From Firmicutes bacterium UBA5435 (GTDB lineage Bacteria > Bacillota > UBA5435), in assembly GCA_002426645.1 (NCBI GenBank), contig DIRN01000045.1, positions 16,983-80,982 on the forward strand: DNA of 64,000 nt, given 5' to 3'. Below are positions 3,912 through 61,469 of the stretch, in pieces. The position numbers were made by a program, and so were the translations under genes. Below the pieces are notes generated by a model. It saw only the letters and a list, made by a program, of their open reading frames with translations, searched no databases and had not been told where the DNA came from. Within the stretch, counting starts at the first letter, position 1, and the number at the start of each line of letters is the position of its first letter.

Positions 3912-4117
3912 ACCTTCGCCTCCTAGAGTTATATTCCCTCTCTAATGTATTTGTGAAATTTTTCACCAACTCTTCGCTAACATTATACCACGAGGTTATA
4001 CAAAGTTCAATAGTATTCGTGATAATTTTCACAAATGCTATTAAGAATTATTTCTCATAACAATAAATAGGCGCGTATCGTTGAGGTAACTCTACAATAC
4101 TCGCCTATTCATAATCT

Positions 4118-5962
4118 CTAACTATAAAATCTTTCAATTAACTGGATAGCCATTTCATACCTTCCAAACGGTGGCATTAAATAAGCGCCTTCAACTAGCC
4201 CTTCAGCTTCTTTCATAAACTCAAAAGCTATGTCAACGCCCAGGTTAGCTGCTTTATCTGGATCTACTCGCTGCATTTTCTCCCGTACTTTAAGGGGTAT
4301 AGATATCCCCGGTACCTCATTATGCAAAAATTCAGCATGTTTAGAGCTTCTCAATGGTAATATCCCAACCAAAACAGGGATATCCATTCCTTTTATGCTT
4401 TCCATAAATTGCTCCAAAACCTTAATATCATATATAGGCTGTGTCTGAATAAAATGCGCACCTGCTTTAACTTTTCCTCTCAGCCTAGATAGCTCTTTTT
4501 CAAGGTTCTCAGCTCCTGGATTTGCAGCTACACCTATACAAAAATTAGTCTTTTGATTTAAAGCATTACCTGCAAGATCAAATCCTGAATTCATTTTTGC
4601 CAATATATGAACAAGACCCTCTGAGTTAACGTCAAAGACGGGCTTTGCGTTGGGATGGTCCCCTATTGTTGGAGGATCTCCAGTGAGTGCAAGAACATTA
4701 TTAATCCCAAGAGCACTTGCTCCTAACAGTTCAGACTGAATGCCTAAAAGGTTTCTATCCCGACATGTAAAGTGAAGTATGGATTCAACTTCGAGTTGCT
4801 CCTTTAAGATATGAGCAATAGCGACTGGACTAAGTCTCACACGCGCCATAGGAGAATCAGAGATGTTTATACCATCTACACCTACACTTTTTAAGGCTTT
4901 AACGCCTGAGAATACTTTCCCTAGATCCGTACCTTTAGGTGGATCAATTTCAACAGTTATTACGAATTTTTCCTTTAGTTTATTGCTAAACTGAGATTCT
5001 TCTTTAAAGATACTATCTGCACTAGTACGCAATTCATATTCAATTACCTCAATTTGCTCCTTCTGTGTCTGGGTGGTATGGGAATCCATCAGCCCTTCAC
5101 AAATTGCACTTATATGGATAGGAGTAGTCCCACAGCAACCACCAAGAATATTAGCGCCTGCTTCTATGAAGAGAGGAACACTTTTCCTAAAGTACTCTGG
5201 GGATGAAGTATAAACTGTCCTTCCATCTACTATCTTAGGAAGACCAGCGTTAGGTTGTACTGATACCTTAAGATCACGGACGCTCTTCATCTCACGCACT
5301 ACTTCTATAAGGGGTACGATACCCCCTCCACAGTTAGCACCTACAACATCTGCTCCTGCTTCACTTAAAGCATACGCAGCAGTCTGTGCATCTACACCCA
5401 TGAAAGTCTTTCCATCTTGTGAAAATGCCATTTGAGATATTACAGGGATGTTTTTATCTATCTCCTTTGCTGCTTTAAGAGCAAGAAGTGCCTCTTCAAG
5501 GTCTGACATGGTCTCAATAATGAGAAGGTCAACACCTGCTGAAAATAAATAACTTATTTGCTCAAGAAAAGCTTCATAACATTCAGCCTTTGAAAAAACC
5601 CCGTAAGGCTCAAGTATCTTCCCGGTAGGCCCCACAGCCCCTGCAACGTACACGTCTTTACCTGCAGCCTGACGTGCTAGGTCTACTGCAGCTATATTGA
5701 TGTCTTTTACATGATCTTCAAGGCCATACATACTAAGCTTAACACGATTGGCACCAAAAGTATTAGTTTCAATTATATCTGCGCCGCTTTTAACATATGC
5801 CTTATGAATATCAAGCACTATATCGGGATTATGTATATTTGCCCCCTCGCAGCACATACCAATCTCAAGCCCACGTTCGAATAACATAGTACCCATGGCA
5901 CCATCGCATACTAATATCTTTTCCTCTAAAAGCTCAATAACTGATTTTCTCTTCTCCCTCAC
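4118..5962 (-). CDS. yitJ: Bifunctional homocysteine S-methyltransferase / 5,10-methylenetetrahydrofolate reductase (YitJ-like)
   Basis: 614 aa. The N-terminal half is Hcy-methyltransferase-like (GAMGT...GGCCGTTP) and the C-terminal half is MetF-like. GTG start with SD GAGGGG. Confidence 0.8.
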   Translation of the reverse strand: MREKRKSVIELLEEKILVCDGAMGTMLFERGLEIGMCCEGANIHNPDIVLDIHKAYVKSGADIIETNTFGANRVKLSMYGLEDHVKDINIAAVDLARQAAGKDVYVAGAVGPTGKILEPYGVFSKAECYEAFLEQISYLFSAGVDLLIIETMSDLEEALLALKAAKEIDKNIPVISQMAFSQDGKTFMGVDAQTAAYALSEAGADVVGANCGGGIVPLIEVVREMKSVRDLKVSVQPNAGLPKIVDGRTVYTSSPEYFRKSVPLFIEAGANILGGCCGTTPIHISAICEGLMDSHTTQTQKEQIEVIEYELRTSADSIFKEESQFSNKLKEKFVITVEIDPPKGTDLGKVFSGVKALKSVGVDGINISDSPMARVRLSPVAIAHILKEQLEVESILHFTCRDRNLLGIQSELLGASALGINNVLALTGDPPTIGDHPNAKPVFDVNSEGLVHILAKMNSGFDLAGNALNQKTNFCIGVAANPGAENLEKELSRLRGKVKAGAHFIQTQPIYDIKVLEQFMESIKGMDIPVLVGILPLRSSKHAEFLHNEVPGISIPLKVREKMQRVDPDKAANLGVDIAFEFMKEAEGLVEGAYLMPPFGRYEMAIQLIERFYS

Positions 5963-6040
5963 AGTTACCCCTCATCTCTGTTAAAGAATTTTAGCTTGTC
6001 TTAAAAACATGGGGATTCCCGGGATACCTGCACACGCCTT

Positions 6041-6069
6041 ATTATATAATATATATAATATAATAGCAA
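6041..6069 (-). promoter_or_regulatory. Candidate sigma-A promoter for the yitJ-like gene (TTGCTA-N17-TATAAT)
   Basis: Read on the minus strand: -35 at 6064-6069, -10 at 6041-6046. The region is very AT-rich, so chance matches are likely. Confidence 0.35.
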
Positions 6070-6182
6070 CATTGATACGAGCCTTTTACGACTTTGTTTT
6101 TATATTTTTCACTCTCTTGCAGGAAAACTCGTACTCTATAGTGAATTATCAACTATATATCATAAAGAAGGAGGAACGCGTA

Positions 6183-7067
6183 GTGATAGATATCTCCTCT
6201 GAAGAAGATTTCGCTGGCATCCTTGAATCCCTTCAAGCAAAGGGCCTTCATCTGGTTTCAGAGCCTTTGCCTCTCTTCATTGGCGGCGTACAAATTAATC
6301 TCTTTCATGAGAATTCCACTCTTCCAGCGCTCTTTCATCCATCATTCCTATGTGGGAATTATATTGTTGAACCCAAGGAATGTAATATTTATTTAAATGA
6401 GAGAAGATTTAATATTGAACCCCAACTCTGTAATAGGGAAGCCTACCCAGTACGTAAAGGGGAATCAATCATGGCATCTGATATATATATTTCCTTATCA
6501 GATTATAAGAGGAAAAAGTGCACAGCTATGGTACTAGAGAATCTACCAGCAGATGATCTATTGACTATAGTGAGATGGTTGATGCCACCATTCCTCATAG
6601 ACTTTCAGATACTCCCTATACATGCCTCAGGAATAATCCATAAAGAGAAAGGTATCTTATTTATCGGTCACTCTGGAGCTGGTAAATCCACTGTGGCCAG
6701 GCTCTCAACCCCCCGCAAAGTCCTTAGTGATGAATGCGTACTCATAAAGAAAGATGGGGATGCCTTCACCGCATATGGTACTCCCTTTGGTCGAGAGGAT
6801 AAAGGCGAGAATATCCATGCCCCTCTTTATGCTATTATGGATCTAAAAAAAGATTCCCGCGACTACCTAAGACCCCTCCCCTTCCATGCAAGGTTAAACC
6901 TTATTATGAAACACCTTTGGACCTCTACAATACCTAAAGCAAACCTCAAGCTTCTATTGAATCTTGCTGTAGATATAGCAAGAGTAACGCCAGCATATGA
7001 ATTGCACTTTAAGAAAGAAAGCACATTCTGGAACGTAATCGATGAGCAGATCTTCAGCCATATCTAA
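6183..7067 (+). CDS. HPr-kinase-C-terminal-domain-like P-loop protein (RiPP-associated kinase candidate)
   Basis: Walker-A-like GHSGAGKST followed by LSDECVLI, as in the HprK C-domain. I moved the start to the GTG at 6183, 8 nt after GGAGG at 6170-6174. The track ORF starts at 6009. Confidence 0.65.
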   Translation: MIDISSEEDFAGILESLQAKGLHLVSEPLPLFIGGVQINLFHENSTLPALFHPSFLCGNYIVEPKECNIYLNERRFNIEPQLCNREAYPVRKGESIMASDIYISLSDYKRKKCTAMVLENLPADDLLTIVRWLMPPFLIDFQILPIHASGIIHKEKGILFIGHSGAGKSTVARLSTPRKVLSDECVLIKKDGDAFTAYGTPFGREDKGENIHAPLYAIMDLKKDSRDYLRPLPFHARLNLIMKHLWTSTIPKANLKLLLNLAVDIARVTPAYELHFKKESTFWNVIDEQIFSHI

Positions 7068-7088
7068 TTAGAATAGGAGTGATATAAG

Positions 7089-7400
7089 ATGGAATACAAA
7101 AGAAGGATTCTTAAGAAAAAACCTGATCTTATCTATCGAGTTGTAGATGAAGAGACTATACTCCTTGACCCTGAAAGCGGGTACATGCATCTTCTCAATT
7201 CAACGGGCAAAGAAATATGGGAGCTAATAGATGAAGTAGGTAAGGATTTCGATGATATCCTCGCTGCTATGGTCGATGAATATGGCCACACAATAGATTT
7301 AGATGTGCTCAAAGACGATCTTGAAGAATTTATAGATACACTTTTAGAACACGGAGTAATTATAGAAGAAGGTAAGTCAGCTCATACCAAGGAAGAATAG
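7089..7400 (+). CDS. PqqD-family protein (RiPP recognition element-like)
   Basis: 103 aa. YRVVDEETILLDPESGYMHLLNSTGKEIWELID is the typical PqqD pattern. Confidence 0.8.
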   Translation: MEYKRRILKKKPDLIYRVVDEETILLDPESGYMHLLNSTGKEIWELIDEVGKDFDDILAAMVDEYGHTIDLDVLKDDLEEFIDTLLEHGVIIEEGKSAHTKEE

Positions 7401-7407
7401 ACCTTTT

Positions 7408-7437
7408 AAATAAGTGGACAGATCTGTCCACTTATTT
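7408..7437. terminator. Bidirectional intrinsic terminator between convergent genes
   Basis: Perfect 13-bp inverted repeat AAATAAGTGGACA-gatc-TGTCCACTTATTT, with A/T runs on both sides. Confidence 0.7.
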
Positions 7438-7439
7438 AA

Positions 7440-7790
7440 TCAATCTCGGGTAATCTCAGACACCTTTCCGATTACGCGGTCAAAGAGTACAGGAGGGTCT
7501 GTATAAGGAGAATTATCTCCTTTAGTTATAACATAAAGTGCACCATCTCTAGTCCCTACTTTTATCACACGATGAATTATGATCAACTCTCCGCTCATCC
7601 AAAGAGCTACAATATCCCCTTCTTTAAGTCCTGAAGCTGGAACTATCCTTACAAAATATTCTGAAGGTATAACTGGCTCCATACTAGACCCTTTACCCTG
7701 TAACCTAACTTTTTGGCCGCATACTATTGCTTCTTTCATTAACTTTACAGCTATACTTATAGCTTCTTTTAGAAAAGGGGTGTCCGCCAT
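7440..7790 (-). CDS. S26/S24-family signal-peptidase-like serine peptidase
   Basis: 116 aa. GSSMEPVIP (catalytic Ser context), GDIVAL and IIHRVIKV. SD GAGGGTGA. Confidence 0.65.
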   Translation of the reverse strand: MADTPFLKEAISIAVKLMKEAIVCGQKVRLQGKGSSMEPVIPSEYFVRIVPASGLKEGDIVALWMSGELIIIHRVIKVGTRDGALYVITKGDNSPYTDPPVLFDRVIGKVSEITRD

Positions 7791-7796
7791 TATAGA

Positions 7797-7898
7797 TCAC
7801 CCTCTGCATATATTCCAATACCATCCCACACTTTCAGTATTACATATAGCTAATGGTCCAGTCTCTAAGCCAGGTTTAAAGATTCTCTCTGACCGCAT
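7797..7898 (-). CDS. Candidate 33-aa precursor peptide MRSERIFKPGLETGPLAICNTESVGWYWNICRG
   Basis: Below the ORF-track cutoff, found by hand. It is the only substantial ORF in the rSAM-peptidase gap and has two Cys in its C-terminal half. The SD is weak (the nearest AAGGAG is 24 nt upstream). Confidence 0.25.
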   Translation of the reverse strand: MRSERIFKPGLETGPLAICNTESVGWYWNICRG

Positions 7899-7932
7899 CT
7901 CAGGCTTTACATACTTGCGCGGCTCCTTCTTC

Positions 7933-8985
7933 TCAGTCCTTCTTTGAACCTTTTGAGACATCCTCTTCCCTCCTTTCTCTTAGCATATTATAAGCAGCTC
8001 TGCGATTTGCTGCGATCCTACAATGTTCCTGAGAAGGTTTCACTATGGAACCTGTTTCTAATATGTTCATCACAAGGCATGGCGTACAAAACTCATTATG
8101 CTCACAGGCTATGCACTCATAAAAGTCCTCATCGCGAAGCGCTCTCAATGATCTGAGTATATGTGAGCCTCGCCACGTTTCAGCAATAGAACCAGATAAT
8201 ATATTTCCTATAGTTTGTGGAAAACCTATACAAGGGCGGAGAGAACCTTCAGGCCCAATTACCAATCCTTTCTTTCCAATTGAGCACTTACTTAAGGGTT
8301 GCGGATAAAACCCTTGTAACCCCTCTGCTAAAAATATGTTTACCATCTCTTCATCTGTCAACCGATGCATATTAGCGCCATCAGCCTTAAGTAGAAGCTG
8401 TGGATCAAACCTGACTCTAATAGGGAACCCTATCGATTCTGCATATCTTAAAGTCTCCTCATATGCTTTAGCTGTCTCTCGCATTGTAACTACTTTAAGG
8501 AAGACGCTTACATCCCTCTCTTTCAAAAGTCTCAGCCCTCGCGCAAAGGCTTCAAATGCACCGCTACGACCCGTTGCAAGATCATAAACCCCCTTAGAGC
8601 CTCCATACACGCTAACTTCAACCTCTAGAGGCATGAGCGATGCTATCTTATTTGCATTAACCTCATCTATGCAAGTGGCATTGGTAAATAAACTTAAGTA
8701 AAGATTCTCCTCCTTTGCAGCGCAAGCAATTTCATACCAGTCATATCGCATAAGGGGTTCGCCACCTGATAGAGTAACCTTTAAGACTCCCATGTCATGT
8801 AACTGCCTAAAGACATCTTTCAGAGAGGATACGCTTAAGTTATTTCTTGTTCTCTCTCTAACATATGATGGGACATAGCAATGAAGACACCTCAGGTTAC
8901 ATATATGTGTAAGTTCAATAAGAACTCCATGTGGAATAGATTGAGAATCATATAGTTCTATGACGTATTTCAATAATCTGCTCAT
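7933..8985 (-). CDS. Radical SAM protein with SPASM-type C-terminal domain
   Basis: 350 aa. CNLRCLHCY (CxxxCxxC). C-terminal PCIGFPQTIGN...CIACEHNEFCTPC...HC cluster. Confidence 0.85.
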   Translation of the reverse strand: MSRLLKYVIELYDSQSIPHGVLIELTHICNLRCLHCYVPSYVRERTRNNLSVSSLKDVFRQLHDMGVLKVTLSGGEPLMRYDWYEIACAAKEENLYLSLFTNATCIDEVNANKIASLMPLEVEVSVYGGSKGVYDLATGRSGAFEAFARGLRLLKERDVSVFLKVVTMRETAKAYEETLRYAESIGFPIRVRFDPQLLLKADGANMHRLTDEEMVNIFLAEGLQGFYPQPLSKCSIGKKGLVIGPEGSLRPCIGFPQTIGNILSGSIAETWRGSHILRSLRALRDEDFYECIACEHNEFCTPCLVMNILETGSIVKPSQEHCRIAANRRAAYNMLRERREEDVSKGSKKD

Positions 8986-10379
8986 CTTCTTACGGTTCCT
9001 TTTATCAATCTAAAGCCTTCTTCAAAACCAAGGCTCTTGATTATCTCCATACGTTCCTGCTCCTTTTCGGTTAAACCTCCGTCCATAACTACTGCACCTT
9101 CTTTTAAAAGAATAAAGGTACCGTAATATATGGCTGTTTTAACCCCTTCTTTACTTCCTACGGTTAATTCATTAAAACTATGTAATTCCCAAAGTCCCTT
9201 TACACAGGTCTCACCAAACAAAGCCCATGAAAGAGGCCGTTCCTCTTCATCTATCACAAAAAACAGCTTGTACTTGCGATTAAATCTATGAAAAAAGGTT
9301 AAAGCCCTATTAATAACTTTAAGAGTTTTATCATGGATTTGAATATAGCTCCCGTTGATCTCATCATCACTATTATATTCTTTAATAGTATATCCTTTAA
9401 AGTTAAAGCATGCATTCGAAAAAGGCTCATCCCTCAGATAATAACTACTATTTGAGCGTTCTTTAATATTCAAGACCTGCTCTGCAAGGGGCCACATCCA
9501 CTCTTCAGTCATTACTAGTTCAAAGTCATCCTGCTCATGAGTTAAGAGCCATTCCATGAATGCTTTAGCTTCGCGTACCTCTGATGACCTTATAATAAAA
9601 ATCCTCCCAAAAGCAAAATTTATTTCAATGATGAGACCATTGCTATGTTGCTTCATTTCAGGATAGCGACATACATAAAACTTAGGTTGGACAATCTTTT
9701 TCATGCTATCTTCTATAAGTTCTAATATATAACAGTTAAGGAACGCATCCTTTCGAAGTTTATATATAATCCTTGAGATCCTAGAGAACTTTAAAACACT
9801 GGGGCTACCCTCTTCATTTAATTGTTCTCCAGATAGTTCTTCAAACGCGACTCTGAGTTCCATCTTCCCCCTATGTATTGCATTCTTAACCTGGTATAGG
9901 GTCATACCAAGAAGTTCGCCTATCTCTTTATAGGATTTGCCTTCTATATAGCTTAAAAAAAGAGGAGCATACCTTTTATATGGAAGTGTCTGTAATGCTC
10001 TAAGGAGGAAAGAGGTATCCTCCTTTTTTATAATCTTATCTTCGATAGATTTATCATCCTTAGAATCTAAAGGTTCCTTTAACCCTGATTCTATCATATA
10101 ATCAATTGAAAGAGGTTGATTCCGTGAGGTTTTAAAATGATCCTTAATGATATTCCTAGCTATACCAAAGAGCCACTGGTTAAATTTATCTCTACTCTTT
10201 AAAGTATCTATATTCTCAACTACTCTTAGCAAAGTTTCCTGAGCTACCTCATCAGCATACGTAGGATTTCCCAGGACTTGTAGGGAGAAATAATATATCT
10301 TATTACGCGAAGATTCAAATAATCCATTTACATCCCCTTCCTCGAGCTGAAAGACTTCAAAAAACTTATGTACTTGCAT
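8982..10379 (-). CDS. ECF-type sigma-70 factor fused to an uncharacterised ~280-aa C-terminal domain
   Basis: Region 2 (DEVAQETLLRV...WLFGIARN) and region 4 (YKEIGELLGMTLYQVKNAIHRGK) lie in the first ~190 aa. The start is set at the ATG at 10379 (SD AAAGGAG, 8 nt). There is a 4-nt overlap with the rSAM gene. Confidence 0.7.
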   Translation of the reverse strand: MQVHKFFEVFQLEEGDVNGLFESSRNKIYYFSLQVLGNPTYADEVAQETLLRVVENIDTLKSRDKFNQWLFGIARNIIKDHFKTSRNQPLSIDYMIESGLKEPLDSKDDKSIEDKIIKKEDTSFLLRALQTLPYKRYAPLFLSYIEGKSYKEIGELLGMTLYQVKNAIHRGKMELRVAFEELSGEQLNEEGSPSVLKFSRISRIIYKLRKDAFLNCYILELIEDSMKKIVQPKFYVCRYPEMKQHSNGLIIEINFAFGRIFIIRSSEVREAKAFMEWLLTHEQDDFELVMTEEWMWPLAEQVLNIKERSNSSYYLRDEPFSNACFNFKGYTIKEYNSDDEINGSYIQIHDKTLKVINRALTFFHRFNRKYKLFFVIDEEERPLSWALFGETCVKGLWELHSFNELTVGSKEGVKTAIYYGTFILLKEGAVVMDGGLTEKEQERMEIIKSLGFEEGFRLIKGTVRR

Positions 10380-10493
10380 TCTAGAAACTCCTTTCATGCC
10401 CTTGGAATAAAATGAGATATATATAAATTCTACATAGCTTTGTAAAATCCTCTAACGATATGATTATAAAGTGTAGATATATTTGGAAAAATC

Positions 10494-19645: not shown

Positions 19646-20167
19646 TTAAAAAATAGTAAAGCCATGCCTTTCCAAGTACGATACCACCATACGTTCCAAC
19701 TTACGAACAAGCCTTGTAGTGAAGAACTCGCGATCGCTTATTGGTTTAACAAGAATAGTGTATAGACCAACCCTATTTCCTCCTAAGACATCTGTAAAGA
19801 TCTGATCTCCTACAACTACAGTATTCGAAGGATCCGTACCTATCCTCTCCATAGCCAAAAGAAAAGGACGCCTTCTTGGTTTTACTGCACTGGGTACTAC
19901 TGGAAGGCCCAAGATAGTTCCCGCCTCATTTACTCTATTGTTAAATCCGTTAGATACCAAACATATCTTAAACCCTAATCTCTTTGCATCAGCAAGCCAA
20001 TCTTTAATCTCTACTTTCATTAAGCTAATATCGCCTTTCCATTCTACAAGAGTGTTGTCTAAATCAATTATAATTCCCTTTTTACCCGCTTTTTCCAAGC
20101 ATACCAGATTGATATCTTCAACAGATTCAACATAGGCCCTTGGGCAGAAGAACTTCTTTAATATCAT
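19646..20167 (-). CDS. yqeG: YqeG-family HAD phosphatase
   Basis: The MILKKFFCP start matches the YqeG N-terminus. HAD motif IIDLDNTLVEW and VGDQIFTD. Confidence 0.8.
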   Translation of the reverse strand: MILKKFFCPRAYVESVEDINLVCLEKAGKKGIIIDLDNTLVEWKGDISLMKVEIKDWLADAKRLGFKICLVSNGFNNRVNEAGTILGLPVVPSAVKPRRRPFLLAMERIGTDPSNTVVVGDQIFTDVLGGNRVGLYTILVKPISDREFFTTRLVRKLERMVVSYLERHGFTIF

Positions 20168-20226
20168 AGAAAATGCGCATAGAAACCCCCTGACTTTAGT
20201 CTAGGGGAAAATGCGCTGCCTCCTTT
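20168..20226 (-). promoter_or_regulatory. Split-RBS leader hairpin, copy 1
   Basis: Minus strand: AAAGGAGG-ca-GCGCAU-uuu-CCCCU-a-GAC-uaaa-GUC-AGGGG-guuucu-AUGCGC-auuuucu-AUG. There is no SD within 15 nt of the ATG and an in-frame TAG upstream. Confidence 0.5.
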
Positions 20227-20378
20227 CATACATACTTGCTCTCTCTATACAAGTAATAATATTAATAAATAAGTCGCAACTTCTTTATACGCTCCTATAT
20301 ACCAGTGTTACATCTGATTCTATCATATACTGAACCTTTTCTCAATATAAAAGATCTTATACTTTAGGTAAACAGACC

Positions 20379-21602
20379 CTAAACCCCTTTTGTACTTGAC
20401 ATATCTTTTGCAAAACCAAACCTTAAAACCATTATTGCTACAATTAAAAATATGGCTATGAGCTCCATAGCGATTCTAAAACCTATATATTCTGCAATAG
20501 CGCCAATGAGAGGAGGAAAGAAAATAGCTCCTAGATCACCAGCTGAGGTTGCAATGCTCAGTGCTAGATTCTTATTTGAATCAGCGGCTGAAGAAACCAT
20601 AGATATTAATGATGGGTATATACCAGCAAAACCAAACCCAACTAGTATATAAAGACCCGCTGCAATAAATATGGAACTAGTCATAGCACCACCTACTAAA
20701 GCTATACTAGAGACCACTGCCATATATATAACCATACGCGCATTAGGAGAAGACGAGGCAAAACGGCCTAGGAGAACTCTTCCTAAAGTAATGGCAATCC
20801 AAATAAGGGTAAGTATATAGCCAGAACCAGTAAAAGAATGTATATCAGTAAAATACTTAACTACCCATACATTAACTGACCCTTCGGCTCCTACATAAAG
20901 AGCTAATGCAATAAAGAGTGATAATAGATTCCTATTCCATACTCTTCTCTTTTCAGGAACATCCTCTATTCTACTCAAAGATTCTCTATCATTGGCTACT
21001 TTATCATGCTCTGTGCAAGTAAAAAAAGTCCTTACGCTAAAAGTCCATAGACTCGCAATAGTCATGATGGCTATTGGAAGATAGAGTACATGGCGCCAGT
21101 TCCCTGTGGAATTCAAGATGAGTTGAGCAGCAAAGGGACCAACTATAACACCGATGCCAAATGCACTATAAAGATAATTTATATTAGACGCTCTTTTTGT
21201 CTCAGGACCGCAATTGCTCATTATAGTAGTGGAGTATGTGAATATCAAACCATTCATTATTCCCCCTACTAAAAACGAAAAGAATACCATTGCATAATTC
21301 CATGCCACGCTAAAACCCGTAAGTGATAGGGCACAAATCAAAGTACCGAGGGTCAAAACCCTACGAGGCTTTGATAAACGCCATGCAATGGGACTTAGCA
21401 GCATACCAATGAGGCCACCAATAGCATAACTAGATGAAAGAACTCCTGCCATTGTCTGACTCACACAAAACTCCATCATCACATTATCTATAATAGGGCC
21501 CAAGATTATCATTACTATCCCTGCTCCAAAAATTGTCCAAAAGAGCCCAACTGCAGCAGAGTTTGATAATGACCCTTCTATTCTCTCTTCCACGAAATAC
21601 AT
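20379..21602 (-). CDS. MFS transporter
   Basis: 407 aa with about 12 hydrophobic segments. Confidence 0.8.
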   Translation of the reverse strand: MYFVEERIEGSLSNSAAVGLFWTIFGAGIVMIILGPIIDNVMMEFCVSQTMAGVLSSSYAIGGLIGMLLSPIAWRLSKPRRVLTLGTLICALSLTGFSVAWNYAMVFFSFLVGGIMNGLIFTYSTTIMSNCGPETKRASNINYLYSAFGIGVIVGPFAAQLILNSTGNWRHVLYLPIAIMTIASLWTFSVRTFFTCTEHDKVANDRESLSRIEDVPEKRRVWNRNLLSLFIALALYVGAEGSVNVWVVKYFTDIHSFTGSGYILTLIWIAITLGRVLLGRFASSSPNARMVIYMAVVSSIALVGGAMTSSIFIAAGLYILVGFGFAGIYPSLISMVSSAADSNKNLALSIATSAGDLGAIFFPPLIGAIAEYIGFRIAMELIAIFLIVAIMVLRFGFAKDMSSTKGV

Positions 21603-21620
21603 CCTCTCCTTAACCTACTA

Positions 21621-23960
21621 TCAATAAATAACATCCTCTTCAGCAGCGATCAAATTATAAGACAGAAGCATCGCCAAAGAGTAAACTGAAAAATTAGCAT
21701 CTTCTATAAGCCCAGAACTACACATCCTCTCTAGGATATCCATATTTATATCATGTTGCTTCTGCATTTCCTGGCTTTTTCTACTATACAAAACTAGCTT
21801 ACCTTCATCAATAACATTAATGAGCTTTTCAATAAGTGACTTGGCTGATATCCTAAATCGCGCCTCATCTTCTATTTGGTAAGCCTCAAGGAGGTCTGCT
21901 GCAAAGCTCAGCATAACCTCTCTTTCATTATCAAAACCTTCAGACTTCCAGTAACTTTTATCAAGTAAACCTAACTCCCTTCTAAGCTTAGATAGGAGCT
22001 TTGAGAACCTTACTACTACCTCTAATTCAGGAAGAGAATTCAACCTATAGAACTCTCCTTCTACATTGCCGACCTTAGCAAGGCTCATAAGAATTCGCAT
22101 ATTCGCATGTCTCGAGACTTGCCCAGATAAGAGCTGTATGGCTTTGGGAACCAATTCTTCAGCTTCCCTGAACCTTCCAAGCGCTTCAATAGTGGCCACG
22201 ATTACCCTTGCCTCCTGGGCATTTGCTAGCACACTTTTGAGTTCATCCCTTGCTTCATCTCCACCCAAGATACCAAGAGCCATTATGGCTTCTATACTAG
22301 AATTTTCTTCATCAATATGAGCTCGAAGATATTCTATTATAGGACCCACAGCACTAACATCGCCTATCTCGCCAAGAGCTCTAAGTATATCAGAATCATG
22401 AGAATATCCTGGATCCTTGAGTCGGGTTATAAGTTCAGGTACTGCGTCACGAGATTTTAACTCTGCTAGTGCATTAATAGCCTCCCGACGTACTTCTATA
22501 GAGGAATCGTCCAGCGCTTTGATGACCCTCTCAGAAGCCACGGGGCTTTTCGCCAGTCCCAACCCCTTAACTCCTTCAGCCCTTGTTGAAGCCCTAGGGC
22601 TCTTTGAAGAAAAAATCATACCTTTAAGGAGAGCTACCGGGGCCTTTGTCTTCATCTCACCTATAAATTCCTTGAGACCAATGGCACTTTCCTCTTTAAG
22701 CCTCTTGAGAAGAGGTAGAAGAAAAATAAAAAGTATAGCTTGCCCAAGATAAAGGATACGCAAGTAATCAATGCTAACTCCCAAAAATTGAAAGCCTTTA
22801 TTCGCTACAAATGCTGCCAAGTAACCGCCAATTATAGGAGCTACAAGTCCAATACTACCCTGTACAGTACTATAAAAAGCCATATACGAAGCCTTTCTTT
22901 CGCCCTGTGGTAAAAGACTATAATACATATTATTAGCAGCTATACCATAACCAGCTGAAAGAATAGCCCCTACTGCCACTACCGGAAAGAGGAATGTATA
23001 GTTTTGAGGAGTGGCTAAAATAAGCGCTATATTTCCTATTACAGCCCAAATAAGGCCTATTGTCAATGCTGGCTTATTTCCATACCTATTTATTAGATAT
23101 CCCCACGCAGGATATGTTATCAATGCAGCAACATTAGCTACTGCGGTAAGAAGTGCCAGAGTAGAATAGGGCATATAAAGAACCTTAAGATAATAGACAT
23201 TAGTAAACGGTGCCATAAGATTAGCAGCAAGAACCCAAGAATTAAAGAACACAGTAAAAGCCATAAAGTCTTTATCCTTAATTATATCTCGGTTCCCACT
23301 ACGAGAAGTACTATCTTTACTCCGCTGTCCTAAAGACAGATCATAAAACGGTAGTTTTTTGAGAAAGGTATGTCTTGCAAAGGCTATTGGCACACTTAAA
23401 CCGTATGCTATAAGGAACCCTTTACATCCTATAAATAGATCAAGGAGGTAACCTACAGCAAGACCTGATATGACAGATGAAGTAACTGTGATCAGGTTTT
23501 GTTTAGATATAAAAGCAGCTCTAAGCGATGGGGAAACAAGTTCCACATACCAAGAATTAGCGATAGGAGCGCTCAAAGCTGCAATAAAATTCGCTGTCCC
23601 TACAGTAAAGAGAATAACCCTTACAGCACGATCATGTGTAAATAGGAGACCAATTATAGCTAATGTAGCACGGAGCACCCATGCTATGTTCTGAGAAATT
23701 ATCCACCACCTTTTTTGATTAGATACTCGACGTGAGATGTTTAAAGCGATAAGTTGAGTCATGGAACCAATATATGCAAGCGCGCCAAGGAATCCGATTT
23801 GACGATCATTAGCCCCTAGCTCAAGGAGTAGACCGGTTAAAACCATCCCTCCAACAAGATTAGTCCAGATAGAAGCACCACCCTGATAGCATAACCAGAG
23901 ACTAAGCCCACTAGCCCTCTCAGCTCTCGTAAATTCCCTTTTATTCTCAGCCTGTATCAA
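21621..23960 (-). CDS. MFS transporter fused to a C-terminal HEAT-repeat domain
   Basis: 779 aa. The N-terminal ~450 aa are polytopic. The C-terminus carries HEAT/PBS-lyase-like repeats (DSSIEVRREAINALAELKSRDAVPELITRLKD). Confidence 0.7.
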   Translation of the reverse strand: MIQAENKREFTRAERASGLSLWLCYQGGASIWTNLVGGMVLTGLLLELGANDRQIGFLGALAYIGSMTQLIALNISRRVSNQKRWWIISQNIAWVLRATLAIIGLLFTHDRAVRVILFTVGTANFIAALSAPIANSWYVELVSPSLRAAFISKQNLITVTSSVISGLAVGYLLDLFIGCKGFLIAYGLSVPIAFARHTFLKKLPFYDLSLGQRSKDSTSRSGNRDIIKDKDFMAFTVFFNSWVLAANLMAPFTNVYYLKVLYMPYSTLALLTAVANVAALITYPAWGYLINRYGNKPALTIGLIWAVIGNIALILATPQNYTFLFPVVAVGAILSAGYGIAANNMYYSLLPQGERKASYMAFYSTVQGSIGLVAPIIGGYLAAFVANKGFQFLGVSIDYLRILYLGQAILFIFLLPLLKRLKEESAIGLKEFIGEMKTKAPVALLKGMIFSSKSPRASTRAEGVKGLGLAKSPVASERVIKALDDSSIEVRREAINALAELKSRDAVPELITRLKDPGYSHDSDILRALGEIGDVSAVGPIIEYLRAHIDEENSSIEAIMALGILGGDEARDELKSVLANAQEARVIVATIEALGRFREAEELVPKAIQLLSGQVSRHANMRILMSLAKVGNVEGEFYRLNSLPELEVVVRFSKLLSKLRRELGLLDKSYWKSEGFDNEREVMLSFAADLLEAYQIEDEARFRISAKSLIEKLINVIDEGKLVLYSRKSQEMQKQHDINMDILERMCSSGLIEDANFSVYSLAMLLSYNLIAAEEDVIY

Positions 23961-24171
23961 AACCCTTCTCCCCTTCTTCTATAATATCGCTAATACTAAT
24001 ATTTTCGTTGTTCCTCTAAGGATTCCTCCTCATAAGTTTAAAATCTTCTTGCCCCCTCCTTATAACCATGTAAAGAACATTTTTGAATTCTTACTTAACA
24101 TTCAAGAAAAAATAAGGTATAATATAGACGGAAAGTAAGATATCTAGTTGTATAGGAGGGACAACTATATT

Positions 24172-24588
24172 ATGAAATGCCCAAATTGCCAAAGAGAGAT
24201 CATGCTTGCCAAAATTTGCCCCTATTGTAGCACTCGAATCAAAGTTAAACCACGAGGGAAAAAGAAAGTTACCCCGTTTAGAAAAGTACACCATAAAGAC
24301 CAGGGCAAACGAGGAGAATTCAAAGGCCGAATTAGAAACGAAAAAACGGCCCAAGAAAGAATGGAGTTTACTCCTATTCAACTCACTCTCGAATATATGA
24401 AGGATCCAGCTGTGCCATTTTCGAAGAAATTAACGATAATAGGAGCAGTAGCATACATCCTGTCACCTATAGATCTTATCCCAGCATTTCTCTTCCCCCT
24501 GAGTATCTTAGACGATGCAATCGTTATAGGTTATCTTCTACGTACACTCTCTTTTGAACTTACAAAGTATAGGGCTGGTTATTATTGA
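24172..24588 (+). CDS. Zinc-ribbon + DUF1232 (YkvA-like) membrane protein
   Basis: MKCPNCQ...CPYC at the N-terminus. AYILSPIDLIPAFLFPLSILDDAIV is typical of DUF1232. AGGAGGG lies upstream. Confidence 0.6.
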   Translation: MKCPNCQREIMLAKICPYCSTRIKVKPRGKKKVTPFRKVHHKDQGKRGEFKGRIRNEKTAQERMEFTPIQLTLEYMKDPAVPFSKKLTIIGAVAYILSPIDLIPAFLFPLSILDDAIVIGYLLRTLSFELTKYRAGYY

Positions 24589-24594
24589 TTGTCT

Positions 24595-25740
24595 TCAACT
24601 ATCATAACTTCGTCGCCTACATATTTTCTCTGTATATCCAGATTCCTTAAAAGCCTTACGAGGTTCCTCTGGTACTCCTATATCCCTACGTACTTCATAT
24701 AAAAGTTCATTAACATCAGTATTAAAAGCATCTTTTAAGATCTCTTCAGCACCAATTATATCTCCAGATTTACGAGCATCTTCAAGTGCATCTCTATCCA
24801 CAAGAAGCGCTTTAGCATAAGCTGTCTGTATATTTTCAACTGATTGGATCATAGCTTCAATCTTCGGTTTCAGATTATGACTTTGATCTATCATATAGGC
24901 AATATCAGAGTCAACAGTTGGATCATTTTCAGCTGCTACTAGCTCATTGAAGATGAGAAATAACTCATGTGGGTTTATTGACCCCACGGTAAGATCATCA
25001 TCAGCATATTTTTTGCTGTTAAAATGGAACCCACCTAACTTACCTTCGTCCAACAAAAATGCGACTAAGTGTTCGATGTTAGTACCCAAAGGATGATGAC
25101 CTAAATCTACCAAAGTCTTAGCCTGAGGGCCTAATTTCATAGCTATTACTGTTGCCATCCCCCAATCTGCCAGATCAGTATGGTAAAAGCTGGGCTCAAA
25201 GGTCTTATACTCAATCAACATCTTCATATCAGGTTCTAGCTTCTCATAGACTTGACCTAAAGACTCTTCCATCCACTTCTTCCGCTTTCGAAAATCCCCT
25301 TGTCCAGGATAATTTGTTCCATCAGGGAACCAAAGGCTAAGGAGTTTAGAGCCAGTCTCTTTCATTATGTGTATACATTCTATCATATGATTTACTGCCT
25401 TCTCCCTCACCTTAGCATCTGGGTGGGTTATGCTTCCCAGCATATAATCATCATCCTGAAAGAAATTAGGATTTATTGCGCCAATTCGAAGGCCTAAAGA
25501 TTCAGCGAAATGCACAAGGCCCTTCCAATCATCTACCATATCCCAAGGGATATGCAAAGCAACACTATGTGTAATACCAGTATATTTGTGAACCTGAGCC
25601 GCATCCTCCAACTTCTCGTAAATATTACGTGCTGCTCCGGGTTTCTTGAATACAAAAAAACGTGTCCCAGAATCACCGTATCCCCATGATGGAGTCTCTA
25701 CCTTTTGGGCCTTTAAACGTTCCTTTATATCTAATCTCAT
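24595..25740 (-). CDS. L-rhamnose-isomerase-like / xylose-isomerase-fold TIM-barrel sugar isomerase
   Basis: 381 aa. N-terminal ETPSWGYGDSGTRF, as in the short RhaI family. Confidence 0.55.
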   Translation of the reverse strand: MRLDIKERLKAQKVETPSWGYGDSGTRFFVFKKPGAARNIYEKLEDAAQVHKYTGITHSVALHIPWDMVDDWKGLVHFAESLGLRIGAINPNFFQDDDYMLGSITHPDAKVREKAVNHMIECIHIMKETGSKLLSLWFPDGTNYPGQGDFRKRKKWMEESLGQVYEKLEPDMKMLIEYKTFEPSFYHTDLADWGMATVIAMKLGPQAKTLVDLGHHPLGTNIEHLVAFLLDEGKLGGFHFNSKKYADDDLTVGSINPHELFLIFNELVAAENDPTVDSDIAYMIDQSHNLKPKIEAMIQSVENIQTAYAKALLVDRDALEDARKSGDIIGAEEILKDAFNTDVNELLYEVRRDIGVPEEPRKAFKESGYTEKICRRRSYDS

Positions 25741-25798
25741 AAAAATCGCGCATGGAACCCCCCGACTTTAGTCTAAAGGGGAATGCGCCGCCTCCTTT
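25741..25798 (-). promoter_or_regulatory. Split-RBS leader hairpin, copy 2
   Basis: AAAGGAGG-cg-GCGCAU-u-CCCCU-uuaGACuaaaGUC-GGGGG-guucc-AUGCGC-gauuuuu-AUG. Near-identical to copy 1. Confidence 0.5.
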
Positions 25799-25927
25799 CA
25801 CACAATATATTACTTACTATTTCTAAGTGGTCTTTGCCAATAAAGTAGCAGGCTCAGAAGTCACAACCCTATAGGCCTGTTTCCTCATCAGCCTGCCCAC
25901 TTCAATCTCTTTAGTCTTTATAAGAAA

Positions 25928-26194
25928 TCACGACGCTCTATCGTCTTTCGTATTTGAAGGATTTGTGGAATAGGTTTCCTTTGATTTTTCTGAAGATGCA
26001 GCCTTTAAATAGGAGTCACTTCTATAATCTGTATTATGAAACCCGTCACATTTGTAAATAATAAATGGATTTGAACTTATAAGTCGTTTAACTGAACCTC
26101 CACAGGTAGGACATGCCTTCAAAGGTTCCTCTGTAATACGTTGATGTATTTCGAATTTACCACATTTTTTGCAAGAATAATCATATATAGGCAT
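25928..26194 (-). CDS. FmdB-family zinc-ribbon protein
   Basis: [15 protein letters not shown]...CPTCGG, the canonical CxxC...CxxC N-terminus. Confidence 0.7.
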
Positions 26195-26311
26195 TTCTAT
26201 CTCTGGCATGAGGAACTTATAAACACTCCCTTAGAAGTGCCAGACTCTAACTCCTTTCACTATATACTTTCTTATCCTATATTAACATTCTACCTCATAA
26301 CAGTCAATACT

Positions 26312-27358
26312 TTAAAACCTAATCTTACCTGATACCATAGCAGCTAAATCTTCCTTGAATTCATCCTTCGAGCCTACAGAAGCATCTACTGATACCGGGC
26401 CAAGATTTATACCTGCTCCTAGTGTTATAAGTCCCTCACCATTAGCTGGCATGGATTTACCAGCTCGAAGAGATATTCCATTAAAGAGCAGTCTCTTTTC
26501 TAATCCAAAGTATAAGCTACCATCTCTCTCCATATCCGCGGCAAGGGTTGTTCCGATGTATGGTACATCCACGGCAACTCCTGCACGTACAAGAGCATCA
26601 AAACGTTCTTGACTAGAGGCGGTATAAGAGTTAACTACTTCCTCTTCTCCTGTCTCAGCATTCTTACTGGAAGAAGTAATAGATTCTCTCCATGTCATGT
26701 TACTAATAAGATCTCGTATCATAAGACCTATGGTAATTGAATCTGTAAATTTAATTCGAATTCCCATATCTGCGCTATAACCAGTTCCTCGCGCATCCAC
26801 CCAGTCTACATTATAGGTAGATTCTCCTGTAGGCACTACATCATAATTATACCTTCGGCCTTCAAGAGCTTTAAAATTTAATCCTACTGAGATAGCGCCT
26901 AAATTCCACTTCGGACTAGTGACCTTTCTGGCAGTGGATACTGTATAGGCCAAAATATACTGTGCTTTCCCATCAGCCTTATTATCCTCTTCAGCCGTGA
27001 GAAGGACCTGCCCAGAGGCTATTATCCCAGCACCGTAGTTCCCCATGCCAAGTCCTAGTATAGCAGCCATACTCACCTCTGCGTTCCCAGGAGAGTCAAG
27101 TATATCCCCGCTCGCCACCTCATTGAACTTCTCCCAACTCGTCCTAGTAGAAGTATGAATGCCAACAGAGGGACTGAGGCCCATATGTGCTATCTCGGTT
27201 AATCCTGCTGGATTCCAATAGATAGCGCTTGCATCATCAGAGATAGCAGTAAAAGCTCCTCCCATTCCCGATGCCTTTGCATTGATGTCCACAGCATATA
27301 TGGGAGCGGTAAAGGTTAAAATCAGAATCATGACTATGAACAGAAAACTTTTCTTCAT
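26312..27358 (-). CDS. FadL/OMPP1-like outer-membrane beta-barrel candidate
   Basis: Signal peptide (MKKSFLFIVMILILTFTAPIYA). GMGGAFTAISDDASAIYWNPAGL motif. C-terminal ...SGKIRF. Confidence 0.55.
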   Translation of the reverse strand: MKKSFLFIVMILILTFTAPIYAVDINAKASGMGGAFTAISDDASAIYWNPAGLTEIAHMGLSPSVGIHTSTRTSWEKFNEVASGDILDSPGNAEVSMAAILGLGMGNYGAGIIASGQVLLTAEEDNKADGKAQYILAYTVSTARKVTSPKWNLGAISVGLNFKALEGRRYNYDVVPTGESTYNVDWVDARGTGYSADMGIRIKFTDSITIGLMIRDLISNMTWRESITSSSKNAETGEEEVVNSYTASSQERFDALVRAGVAVDVPYIGTTLAADMERDGSLYFGLEKRLLFNGISLRAGKSMPANGEGLITLGAGINLGPVSVDASVGSKDEFKEDLAAMVSGKIRF

Positions 27359-27420
27359 CTAAATCGAGCGCCTGAGAACCCCGTCTTTATAAGGCGGGCA
27401 AAAATGCGCCCCTCCCTCCT
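27359..27420 (-). promoter_or_regulatory. Split-RBS leader hairpin, divergent copy 3
   Basis: AGGAGGGAGG-g-GCGCAuuuuug-CCCGCC-uuauaaa-GACGGG-guucucag-GCGC-ucgauuuag-AUG. Confidence 0.4.
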
Positions 27421-27447
27421 TCTGTAAAAGTTCTAATCTTTTATAAG

Positions 27448-27476
27448 TTATTCGACATAAGATAGGTTTTATCCTG
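27448..27476 (-). promoter_or_regulatory. wGGA-N14-TGTCGAATAA motif (candidate alternative-sigma promoter)
   Basis: Minus strand: AGGA-taaaacctatctta-TGTCGAATAA, upstream of the FadL-like gene leader. Confidence 0.35.
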
Positions 27477-27506
27477 CATACATAGAGACGGTAATATCAT
27501 ACATAA

Positions 27507-33321: not shown

Positions 33322-33488
33322 GGCATGGTTCATTTTGTTCTAAATGTGACTAGTTAACTAGTTTACACTTATATATCTACAGTAGGACACACCTATAAAT
33401 GTATATATACCTTTATAGGTGTGCTGTATGGAGACATATAAAAGCACTAGCTTTTAAACCAATTTAGATCCTTAAAATGAACCATGCC
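33322..33488. repeat. Nested palindromic intergenic element
   Basis: 15-bp perfect terminal inverted repeat GGCATGGTTCATTTT / AAAATGAACCATGCC. It encloses the palindrome ACTAGTTAACTAGT (33350-33363) and a 12-bp hairpin CACACCTATAAA/TTTATAGGTGTG (33388-33423). Confidence 0.5.
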
Positions 33489-35732: not shown

Positions 35733-35788
35733 AGAAATCACGCATGGCCCCTGACTTTGTGCTGGTAAGGAGATGCGCCGCCTCCTTT
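35733..35788 (-). promoter_or_regulatory. Split-RBS leader hairpin, copy 4
   Basis: AAAGGAGG-cg-GCGCAU-cuccuuaccagcacaaaGUCAGGGGcc-AUGCGU-gauuucu-AUG. Confidence 0.45.
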
Positions 35789-35843: not shown

Positions 35844-35872
35844 ATTGTACCATATAAGGAGCATTTAGTCAA
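35844..35872 (-). promoter_or_regulatory. Sigma-A promoter (TTGACT-N17-TACAAT) for the HAD gene
   Basis: Minus strand: -35 at 35867-35872, -10 at 35844-35849. This places the GGAGG and hairpin inside the 5' UTR. Confidence 0.5.
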
Positions 35873-39754: not shown

Positions 39755-39845
39755 TCTCCGGCAACCGGCTATCATAGTTAGAGCACTAACTGTAGACCCA
39801 CGGCTTTGCGTCCTCACCTTTCGATGAGTTTGCCTTTATCGGATT
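39755..39845 (-). ncRNA. c-di-GMP-I (GEMM-I) riboswitch aptamer
   Basis: Minus strand: AAAGGCAAACUCAUCGAAAGGUGAGGACGCAAAGCCGUGGGUCUAC...AGCCGGUUGCC. This matches the GGCAAAC..GAAA..GGACGCAAAGCC..GGGUC core, and GGCAA/UUGCC closes P1. Confidence 0.75.
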
Positions 39846-44446: not shown

Positions 44447-44468
44447 ATTCTTTTAATGCTTACCCAAT

Positions 44469-49544: not shown

Positions 49545-49603
49545 ATGTATTGGACGCAAAAGTCCAGCCTTATATGGCGAGGAGAAATGCGCCAGCACCT
49601 CCC
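49545..49603 (-). promoter_or_regulatory. Split-RBS leader hairpin, divergent copy 5
   Basis: GGGAGG-ugcu-GGCGCA-...-UGCGUC-caauacau-AUG. Confidence 0.35.
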
Positions 49604-49717
49604 TTATATATCCTTAATGATCATCTTATTCTACAAAGACAAGTAAATCCCTCTAGTAATCTATCAAGAAACTCTGGATACGCGTCTCTTTGCTCATTTC
49701 ATTATATTTTGTGATAA

Positions 49718-49933: not shown

Positions 49934-49985
49934 AAACCTTACCTTATACTCCTTTCATGAGTTAGGGAAGGCTATATAGCCTTCC

Positions 49986-50246
49986 CTAATCTTTCATATA
50001 CTTTATATTTTCGCTCAAATTAGTCAATGTCCTAAGATACTCTGACGTTAATTCCATAGCCTTATCCTCAGGAACTCCCTTTTCCATTAAAGCTTTATAG
50101 AAGTTACCTATGGCAGTCCCAATATCAGTTCCTGCTTGAGCTGAGAAGATGGACTCTCTTATTGCTTTGAAAACCTTGGGTATTTTCTCATATATTACAT
50201 CTAAGAGATCATTTATCTCTTTAACGGGTATTTCGTTCTTCTGCAT
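49986..50246 (-). CDS. Hypothetical protein
   Basis: 86 aa from the ATG at 50246 (purine-rich SD). No recognised domain. Confidence 0.4.
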   Translation of the reverse strand: MQKNEIPVKEINDLLDVIYEKIPKVFKAIRESIFSAQAGTDIGTAIGNFYKALMEKGVPEDKAMELTSEYLRTLTNLSENIKYMKD

Positions 50247-61438: not shown

Positions 61439-61469
61439 AAAGGAGATGGGTATATACCCATCTCCTTTT
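61438..61469. terminator. Bidirectional terminator between convergent HTH genes
   Basis: Palindrome AAAAGGAGATGGGTATA|TACCCATCTCCTTTT. Confidence 0.65.

Follow-up and report, generated by a model that had tools for sequence, protein, structure and literature searches.

Five Hairpin Units Between Shine-Dalgarno Sequences and Start Codons

Five genes on the minus strand of contig DIRN01000045.1 of the Firmicutes bacterium UBA5435 have a short hairpin-forming unit between a strong Shine-Dalgarno (SD) sequence and the start codon (Table 1). The stretch of DNA that was analyzed, referred to here as the window, comprises 64,000 nucleotides (contig positions 16,983 to 80,982). It is part of a metagenomic contig of 104.7 kb, of which about 84 kb were covered when an extra 20 kb of flanking sequence were included; no further copy of the unit was found in this flank. 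The organism is an uncultured, spore-forming member of the Bacillota, and the flanks of the contig encode SpoIIGA, sigma-E, sigma-G, SpoIIR and SpoIIE. The organism has no close relative in the collections, as the closest homologs share 60% amino acid identity with its YqeG protein and 71–72% with its rhamnose isomerase.

TABLE 1. Location and parts of the five units in the window; stems and hairpins correspond to predicted folds.
Feature	Position	Strand	Remarks
Copy 1, whole unit (SD, outer stem, inner hairpin and linker)	20168–20226	−	Upstream of a YqeG-family HAD phosphatase gene
Copy 1, SD-like AAAGGAGG	20219–20226	−	51 nt 5' of the AUG in the linear sequence
Copy 1, CA spacer			Between the SD AAAGGAGG and GCGCAU
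Copy 1, outer stem, 5' arm GCGCAU	20211–20216	−	Partner 20175–20180; predicted fold
Copy 1, inner hairpin CCCCU-A-GAC-UAAA-GUC-AGGGG	20187–20207	−	Predicted fold
Copy 1, in-frame TAG	20201–20203	−	Within the inner hairpin
Copy 1, outer stem, 3' arm AUGCGC	20175–20180	−	Predicted fold
Copy 1, linker AUUUUCU	20168–20174	−	AUG at 20165–20167
Copy 1, linker and AUGA	20164–20174	−	AUGA is at once start codon and complement of the target-adjacent motif (top strand ATCAT)
Copy 2	25741–25798	−	L-rhamnose isomerase (rhaI), start 25740
Copy 2, SD	25791–25798	−	
Copy 2, outer stem	25783–25788 with 25748–25753	−	
Copy 2, linker	25741–25747	−	
Copy 3	35733–35788	−	HAD hydrolase, start 35732
Copy 3, SD	35781–35788	−	
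Copy 3, outer stem	35773–35778 with 35740–35745	−	Closing G-U pair
Copy 3, linker	35733–35739	−	
Copy 4 (divergent)	27359–27422	−	Secreted PorV-like protein, start 27358
Copy 4, SD	27415–27422	−	
Copy 4, outer stem	27406–27411 with 27366–27371	−	
Copy 5 (most divergent)	49545–49605	−	Sugar-phosphate isomerase/epimerase-like protein, start 49544
Copy 5, SD	49598–49605	−	
Copy 5, outer stem	49588–49593 with 49553–49558	−	

The order of the parts is the same in all five copies: an SD, 2–4 nt, a basal (outer) stem of GCGCAU/AUGCGC or a variant of it, which encloses an inner hairpin whose loop is A-rich, and a linker of 7–8 nt, mostly U-rich, which brings the unit to its end at an ATG that is always part of ATGA. 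The SD is strong throughout, reading AAAGGAGG in three copies and GAAGGAGG and AAGGGAGG in the remaining two. Every copy consists of a single hairpin in sense orientation, placed between the SD and the ATG of an intact gene that has no other SD. Clear sequence likeness occurs among copies 1–3 only: copies 1 and 2 are 87% identical over 45 nt, the 5' part of copy 3 contains 16 nt identical to copy 2, and in the three of them similarity begins at the SD itself. Copies 4 and 5 are divergent, and copy 5 has in common with the others GGCGCAU, the overall layout and AUGAA.

The motifs GGAG, GAGG and AGGA are absent from the interval 3–12 nt upstream of all five ATGs, and most other genes in the window have AGGAG at 7–10 nt; in the five genes the linear distance from the SD to the AUG is 45–58 nt. 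The start codons are considered sound because the NCBIfam profile alignments begin at protein residues 1–5 and because in-frame stops precede three of the starts (copies 1 and 2 have a TAG inside the unit, and in copy 4 a TAG immediately precedes the ATG of the gene starting at 27358). Reading of the sequence thus agrees with the original prediction, in which five minus-strand genes without a proximal SD were described as having a GGAGG 45–58 nt upstream, separated from the ATG by a hairpin: all five copies were found at the predicted sites with the predicted layout, and N-terminal extension, which had been dismissed at that time, is ruled out by the stops for copies 1, 2, and 4.

The recurrence of this layout exceeds chance. 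Where 0.40 loci would be expected, 5 have the pattern GGCGCAT-N15-45-GCG (0 of 100 shuffles), and a sequence-blind descriptor (a strong SD, a basal stem of at least 5 bp, an ATG and no proximal SD) retrieved exactly the five copies among 389 in-frame ATGs, with a mean of 1.05 in shuffled sequences, none of which (0/200) reached five. All five copies are located in the 5' untranslated regions (UTRs) of genes that follow intergenic gaps. Promoter-like sites occur upstream of copies 1 and 3, and the one upstream of copy 3 (35844–35872) places the SD within the mRNA.

Predicted Folding and Spacing

The hairpins of the five copies have predicted energies of −12 to −20 kcal/mol, with −20.1 kcal/mol for copy 1. 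In the predicted folds the unpaired distance between the SD and the AUG is 9 nt in copies 1–3, 7–10 nt for the gene starting at 27358 and 12 nt for the gene starting at 49544. The earlier description of an SD/AUG pair bridged by structure is therefore supported in silico; as to the spacing proposed with it, the value of 9 nt holds for the three conserved copies, while the 10–12 nt assigned to the two divergent ones are replaced by 7–10 and 12 nt.

Alternatively, the SD can pair with the 5' half of the inner hairpin, which is C-rich (CUCCUU, CCCCU); for copy 5 this pairing is the minimum-free-energy fold, and in copies 1 and 3 the U-rich linker is paired with the SD in the predicted fold. By means of such pairing the element could modulate translation; nothing requires that it has such a role. 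An attenuator had also been listed among the possible functions. No evidence in support of this option was obtained. A scan for consensus terminators did not flag the copies because their loops are longer than 8 nt; nevertheless the linkers are U-rich, and the U-rich tract 3' of the hairpin could lead to partial termination of transcription.

Relatives of the Unit Among the Ends of IscB-Linked Transposons

IscB (OMEGA) elements are very common transposons that encode RNA-guided nucleases, the ancestors of Cas9. Two routes, a pattern scan and protein homology, led to ends of such elements. The scan of representative genomes with the pattern AAGGAGGCRGCGCAT-N20-40-ATGCG returned at least 118 stretches; among the matches listed almost all were chance occurrences in G+C-rich genomes, in which GCGCATG is an ordinary start, and only three of the matches listed were informative (L102, L092, and L098). 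A scan of metagenomes gave 14 matches, about the number expected by chance and with nothing new among them, and a pattern scan of viral sequences gave 2 chance matches; a BLAST search of copy 2 against plasmids and phages gave no match.

In L102, a metagenome-assembled genome (MAG) of the Herpetosiphonaceae, a unit of the form SD-GCGCAU...CUAAAG...AUGCGC, followed by a U-rich linker and AUG, precedes an acyl-CoA dehydrogenase gene. Directly upstream lies a decayed gene for an RRXRR (IscB-type) protein with its stop codon within the hairpin loop, and a second matching hairpin occurs at the opposite end of the element. A comparable arrangement, AGAAAGGAG-U-GCGCAAUGC...GUCUAAAACCAGGGG...GCAUUGCGC-AAUUUU-AUGA, was found at the 3' end of iscB in Ktedonobacter robiniae (L148), a locus that was reached by IscB protein homology alone. 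At the latter locus an open reading frame (ORF) for a group II intron reverse transcriptase (287–2023; RVT_N, RVT_1, GIIM and HNH domains) lies just before the C-terminal IscB fragment and slightly overlaps it, which suggests that an intron inserted into the transposon.

Eighty viral-contig loci that encode IscB C-termini were collected by protein similarity, and most of them have a common architecture just after the conserved DGYxY motif. In order, it comprises an outer stem whose sequence varies, UUCCUCCCC, an inner hairpin carrying the loop CU(A/G)AAG (CUAAAG), and GGGG-UUUCC; the outer stem is then closed by its second arm, and ATG(A/G) follows after about 8 nt. The linker between the inner hairpin and ATG(A/G) is about 19 nt. 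In these IscB-linked ends the inner hairpin is supported by strong covariation, with 92.6% of cells paired, 54 cells changed on both sides and 0 of 500 shuffles as high, compared with 22–46% in slid controls. For covariation of the outer stem, a crude comparison of own with swapped flanks yielded mean best stems of 5.1 and 4.5 bp, respectively. On one viral contig (L207) two IscB-type end matches, 1941–2009 on the plus and 2433–2500 on the minus strand, face each other about 420 nt apart.

Two covariance models were built from such ends, R1 from 20 IscB-type ends and R2 only from 35 ends located 3' of iscB homologs in viral contigs by protein similarity, with no training sequence picked by the pattern of the window. 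In the whole window the two best matches of R1 were copy 2 (42.8 bits, E 6e-10) and copy 1 (39.4 bits, E 5e-9), and R2 gave full-length matches (68 positions) to copy 1, with 40.6 bits and E 5e-10, and to copy 2, with 33 bits and E 1e-7, the E-values of both models being rough because of a short calibration. Genuine IscB-linked ends score 20–50 bits, a range that includes copies 1 and 2, and R2 also recovered L102 and L148. The third-best match in the window was copy 4 (E 0.057 with R1, 0.29 with R2), followed by copy 3 (E 0.29 and 0.62, respectively), both of them marginal; copy 5 was not significant (E 9.9 with R1). On direct comparison copy 3 is plainly a sibling of copies 1 and 2; copy 4 is a probable member of the family, and copy 5, which is similar in architecture only, may be regarded as only a probable one.

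The third informative match, in a Eubacterium sp. MAG (L098, 2487–2555), and its counterpart in another assembly (L125) read SD-CA-GCGCAU...AUGCGC-N9-AUG with a hairpin of 18 bp, and precede a gene for a DUF4280 (PAAR-like) protein. No iscB was found near the L098 locus, and R2 gave no match to it. Between the two assemblies there is a C-to-U difference that keeps the pair as G-U on the sense strand.

Target-Adjacent Motif and the Shine-Dalgarno Sequence Carried by the End

According to Meers et al. (bioRxiv 10.1101/2023.03.14.532601), the right end borders the ωRNA upstream of iscB, and the target-adjacent motif (TAM), TTCAT in the IscB element of Geobacillus, adjoins the left end. It follows that the left end is the one downstream of iscB, and, since ATGAA is the complement of TTCAT, the left end is followed by ATGAA on the iscB-sense strand, so that elements come to end directly upstream of start codons. 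The junctions of copies 1–5 in the window read ATGAT, ATGAG, ATGAT, ATGAA, and ATGAA, which on the top strand correspond to ATCAT, CTCAT, ATCAT, TTCAT, and TTCAT (NTCAT). An ATG follows the end in 25 of 31 IscB-linked ends and is part of ATGA or ATGG in all but one of these (24/25); insertion next to ATGA or ATGG was reportedly noted already in the original HEARO paper. The distance from the foot of the inner hairpin to the junction is 15–19 nt in the conserved copies of the window and 18–20 nt, measured by eye, in intact elements, and both agree with the 19 nt of the left end of IS608.

Seventeen of the ATGs at the IscB-linked junctions open ORFs of at least 60 aa, and the genes that start at a junction ATG include those for DXS, SSB, an aldehyde dehydrogenase, a portal protein and an acyl-CoA dehydrogenase. 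Just 5' of the outer stem, as in the window, 11 of 25 ends carry the SD-like GAAAGGAG, and 7 other ends have GGAGG, GAGGAG, or AAGGAG in or after the 3' arm at the canonical 4–8 nt from the ATG. An SD in one of these two positions, near the ATG or on the 5' side of the hairpin, is present in 12 of the 17 ends that border long ORFs. The occurrence of GAAAGGAG in IscB-linked ends bears on the idea of a native SD "split" by an inserted hairpin, with which the unit was first described: the SD belongs to the transposon end and not to the gene. This distribution suggests that the IscB end may be built to drive translation from the junction ATG. Without an SD on the end, the whole transposon would lie between the junction ATG and the SD that belongs to the gene. 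In intact elements GAAAGGAG is located within or just after the iscB reading frame, and there it could serve another purpose.

An example is provided by an intact IscB element (L181, 1733–1800) that ends 11 nt upstream of the start codon of dxs and has AAAGGGGGAA behind the hairpin. Position 1 of the profile aligns at residue 5 of the DXS protein, and this dxs is a candidate for an important gene relying on a transposon end for its translation. A more general proposal, which we regard as possible though somewhat short of probable, is that in a lineage of IscB-type IS605 transposons the left end has become "self-repairing": as its target motif is the complement of ATGA, it would habitually land between the SD and the start codon of a gene, and it would carry a portable SD that keeps the invaded gene translated. 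This SD would be at normal spacing in some sub-families, and in others behind the transposase-binding hairpin and bridged to the ATG by an outer stem, and hosts may lose the body of the transposon and retain the end as a permanent ribosome-binding site. If so, the transposon would be tolerated at such sites and would give rise to a repeated cellular family of structure-bridged initiation regions.

These observations also have to be set against a reading in which the GGAGG of the window copies is not the initiating SD. The genes would then be translated without an SD, and GGAGG and hairpin would stabilize the mRNA or be inert, or the hairpin and the U-tract would partly terminate transcription. 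The STAB-SD is a stabilizer of mRNA, found in the cryIIIA mRNA of Bacillus, and GAAAGGAGG is presumably the same nonamer as that element; the location of the units in the 5' UTRs of operon-leading genes and the U-rich linker after the stem would also suit such a role. However, the unpaired spacing is exactly 9 nt in three copies, the ATG of intact elements lies 6–12 nt after the stem, another subset of IscB ends has its SD 4–8 nt from the same ATG, and the terminator scan did not flag the hairpins, all of which make this reading improbable. Initiation at the transposon-derived GGAGG is inferred from the fact that the five genes have no other SD.

Solo Ends in the Window

A tblastn search of the window and its flanks, for which 117 IscB sequences served as queries, returned no remnant of iscB (no match better than E 0.01). 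The HEARO/ωRNA family (RF02033) gave no Rfam match, as a scan of the window at the gathering threshold found only a c-di-GMP-I riboswitch elsewhere and a scan of 20100–27500 at E ≤ 10 nothing relevant. In the IscB-type family the other end is GTCA-N4-hairpin, which is present in intact elements, and no second hairpin was detected near the copies by self-BLAST of the window or by an unfiltered model search. Since neither IscB, HEARO nor the GTCA-N4-hairpin end accompanies them, the most plausible reading of the copies of the window is that they are solo left ends, relics of insertions from which the body has since disappeared. The comparison of orthologs proposed with the original prediction is in line with an insertion, as the nearest yqeG and rhaI orthologs have no insert or hairpin and their SD lies at 6–8 nt, a normal spacing.

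In 4 of 5 copies the sense strand is predicted to fold more stably than the antisense strand, and G-U pairs are biased in the same sense, although weakly and in small numbers (7 vs. 2). Because the strand on which the transposase acts is the opposite one, these differences hint at retention of the relics as mRNA structure. REP/RAYT elements and DNA operators were also considered as an identity for the unit, and the G-U pairs together with the fixed sense orientation argue against them.

That similarity starts at the SD in copies 1–3 would be a neat outcome of three independent deletions. Selection acting on the SD could explain it, and so could some means by which the end alone is mobilized. 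Instead of dead relics, the units could be a cargo-less miniature derivative that is still moved in trans by a TnpA encoded elsewhere. The identity between copies 1 and 2, the presence of five copies in 64 kb, the common 5' limit in copies 1–3 and the existence of cargo-less PATEs of IscB-type elements in Geobacillus speak for continued mobility, as do AUGAA and GUGAA, which stand directly before the SD in copies 1 and 2; yet these two motifs largely follow from the conserved GAAAGGAG itself. Furthermore, transposition of IS200/IS605 elements requires two hairpin ends, and no GTCA-N4-hairpin occurs near any copy, while the other assemblies of the contig are 100% identical and offer no strain variants or empty sites that would reveal movement. 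We therefore consider it unlikely that the units are still mobile. Two related ideas were abandoned. A TATGA target-site duplication flanking copy 1 is complete (5/5) in that copy only, with no native SD upstream of it, and a one-hairpin mini-transposon cleaving internally at AUGAA/GUGAA does not agree with the true right end of the family, GTCA-N4-hairpin.

A thermosensor or a protein- or ligand-operated switch had been suggested as well. A host regulatory device of this kind, common to a regulon, would alternate between a form with a free, bridged SD and one with the SD sequestered. The latter form would be provided by the pairings described above, in which either the C-rich half of the inner hairpin or the U-rich linker engages the SD, and four of the five genes encode HAD phosphatases or sugar isomerases. 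Nevertheless, homologous transposon ends stand beside unrelated genes in other phyla, and the unit matches no Rfam family and is missing from the orthologs. The conserved C-rich and G-rich tracts need no host explanation either, since active transposon ends already possess them. A dedicated switch is accordingly regarded as very unlikely.

Proposed Origin and Its Implications

The explanation that we favor, and consider likely, is that what survives in each copy is the left, target-adjacent end of a transposon of the IS200/IS605 group and of IscB type (HEARO/OMEGA), with its SD and hairpin now working as a ribosome-binding site. The sequences compared directly support three points, namely that the unit is homologous to IscB-linked ends, that the junction reads ATGA and that the body of the transposon is missing. 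IscB transposons insert next to a TTCAT-like motif, which is ATGAA on the other strand, and according to this proposal many insertions therefore land exactly between the SD and the ATG of a gene, with iscB in the same direction as the gene. Their end has an inner hairpin, recognized by the transposase, that lies about 19 nt away from the boundary and within an outer stem; in this sub-family GAAAGGAGG is located just inside the outer stem. The inner hairpin of copy 1 is the equivalent of the subterminal transposase-binding hairpin of IS200/IS605 ends.

We infer that the body (ωRNA, iscB and the other end) was subsequently lost by deletion, leaving about 60 nt, of which the part from SD to ATG would be retained because the gene depends on it. 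The SD and the bridging hairpin probably now act as the ribosome-binding site of the genes: the folded outer stem and inner hairpin would cut the gap of 45–58 nt to about 9 unpaired nt, so that the 30S subunit could engage GGAGG and AUG together, as in genes 38 and 25 of phage T4. Among the options originally offered, a mobile palindromic insert at ribosome-binding-site spacers came closest to this explanation; the unit would be one end of a transposon of about 1.5–2 kb and not a self-contained palindrome.

The left end of IS200/IS605 elements is already known, and so is the principle of bridging, from phage T4. The literature search returned no description of an outward-facing SD on IscB-type left ends, of an SD bridged over the transposase hairpin in one sub-family, or of solo ends that persist as the only SD of host genes. 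If the proposed origin is correct, it would explain how IscB/OMEGA transposons can reside at start codons (e.g., that of dxs) without silencing the gene, and it would provide a route from transposon ends to host regulatory sequence. It would also represent the first repeated cellular case of hairpin-bridged initiation, which so far is limited to two phage T4 genes; that these were the sole precedent, as had been assumed at the outset, is consistent with the literature found. In practical terms, gene callers will mis-start or mis-score genes of this kind, and the cassette of about 60 nt would be a compact natural part for testing how much structure is tolerated between SD and AUG.

Comparison With Known Systems

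The closest known system is the left end of IscB-type IS200/IS605 elements (HEARO/OMEGA; e.g., ISGst5 of Geobacillus stearothermophilus, with the TAM TTCAT). The inner hairpin and its flanking tracts are homologous according to R1 and R2, and the hairpin foot about 19 nt from the boundary, the NTCAT complement at the boundary and the orientation to the downstream gene are alike. Complete elements differ from the copies of the window, which are devoid of iscB, ωRNA and right end, and occur solo and only directly upstream of intact host genes without an SD of their own. Short, non-coding, hairpin-forming derivatives of IS200/IS605-type ends that are present in multiple copies are also known as PATEs, MITEs, and REPs; PATEs and MITEs, however, keep both ends, and REPs lie mostly after genes and in both orientations, whereas the window copies are one-ended, in sense orientation and confined to the interval from SD to ATG.

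IStrons (e.g., CdISt1), in which an IS605-like element is fused to a group I intron, leave the mRNA by splicing. They are likewise of IS605 type and limit the damage of an insertion in or next to a gene; the remedy in the window would be a replacement ribosome-binding site instead of splicing. Regarding bridged initiation, in T4 genes 38 and 25 (Nivinskas et al., 1999; Malys and Nivinskas, 2009; reviewed in PMC3014915) the SD and the AUG are separated by 22 and 27 nt, which a hairpin reduces to 5 and 11 nt. The window copies resemble them in having an over-long gap that is predicted to be bridged by a hairpin. The T4 structures are single and gene-specific and were demonstrated by mutation and probing, in contrast to the repeated, transposon-derived and predicted cassette of 45–58 nt in the window.

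Other Features of the Window

Some further features were noted in or near the initiation regions of the window. In copies 4 and 5 (27359–27405 and 49545–49587) an AUU after GCGC opens a frame that ends at a UGA overlapping the AUG of the gene (AUGA). The corresponding frame likewise stays open in L098 (2505–2556), ending at a UGA that overlaps the AUG, and in copies 1 and 2 it meets a stop after 3 codons. A mini-ORF starting at this AUU was dropped as a candidate function. Its length is only 3 codons in copies 1 and 2, and in copy 3 it shares the reading frame of the gene, which makes for an inconsistent pattern; moreover, AUU is a poor start codon.

An unrelated hairpin stands between an SD-like run and an ATG (44446) at 44447–44505 on the minus strand, with the sequence GGAGGGGG-AUC-GCUUACCCA...UGGGUAAGC-N11-AUG; its loop contains the stop codon of the upstream gene, and an alternative start at 44374 has a normal SD. 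Upstream of a gene for an FmdB zinc-ribbon protein (26210–26262, minus strand) there are AAAGGAG, a UUAGAG/UUCUAA hairpin and a second run, AAGGGAG, and neither of the candidate ATGs of this gene (26209 and 26194) has an SD within 15 nt.

The c-di-GMP-I riboswitch aptamer (RF01051, 79.8 bits) is located at 39757–39844 on the minus strand, upstream of a gene for a protein of 532 aa (38057–39655). Perfect or near-perfect intergenic palindromes of 22–36 nt occur at 7406–7439, 61438–61469, 49962–49989, 33388–33423, and 47859–47880, and are probably bidirectional terminators. The region 4100–10400 (L137, 2885–5861) holds a RiPP-like cluster that encodes a radical SAM/SPASM enzyme, a PqqD-like protein, a ScmC-family protein and an S24-like peptidase, together with an ORF of 54 aa.
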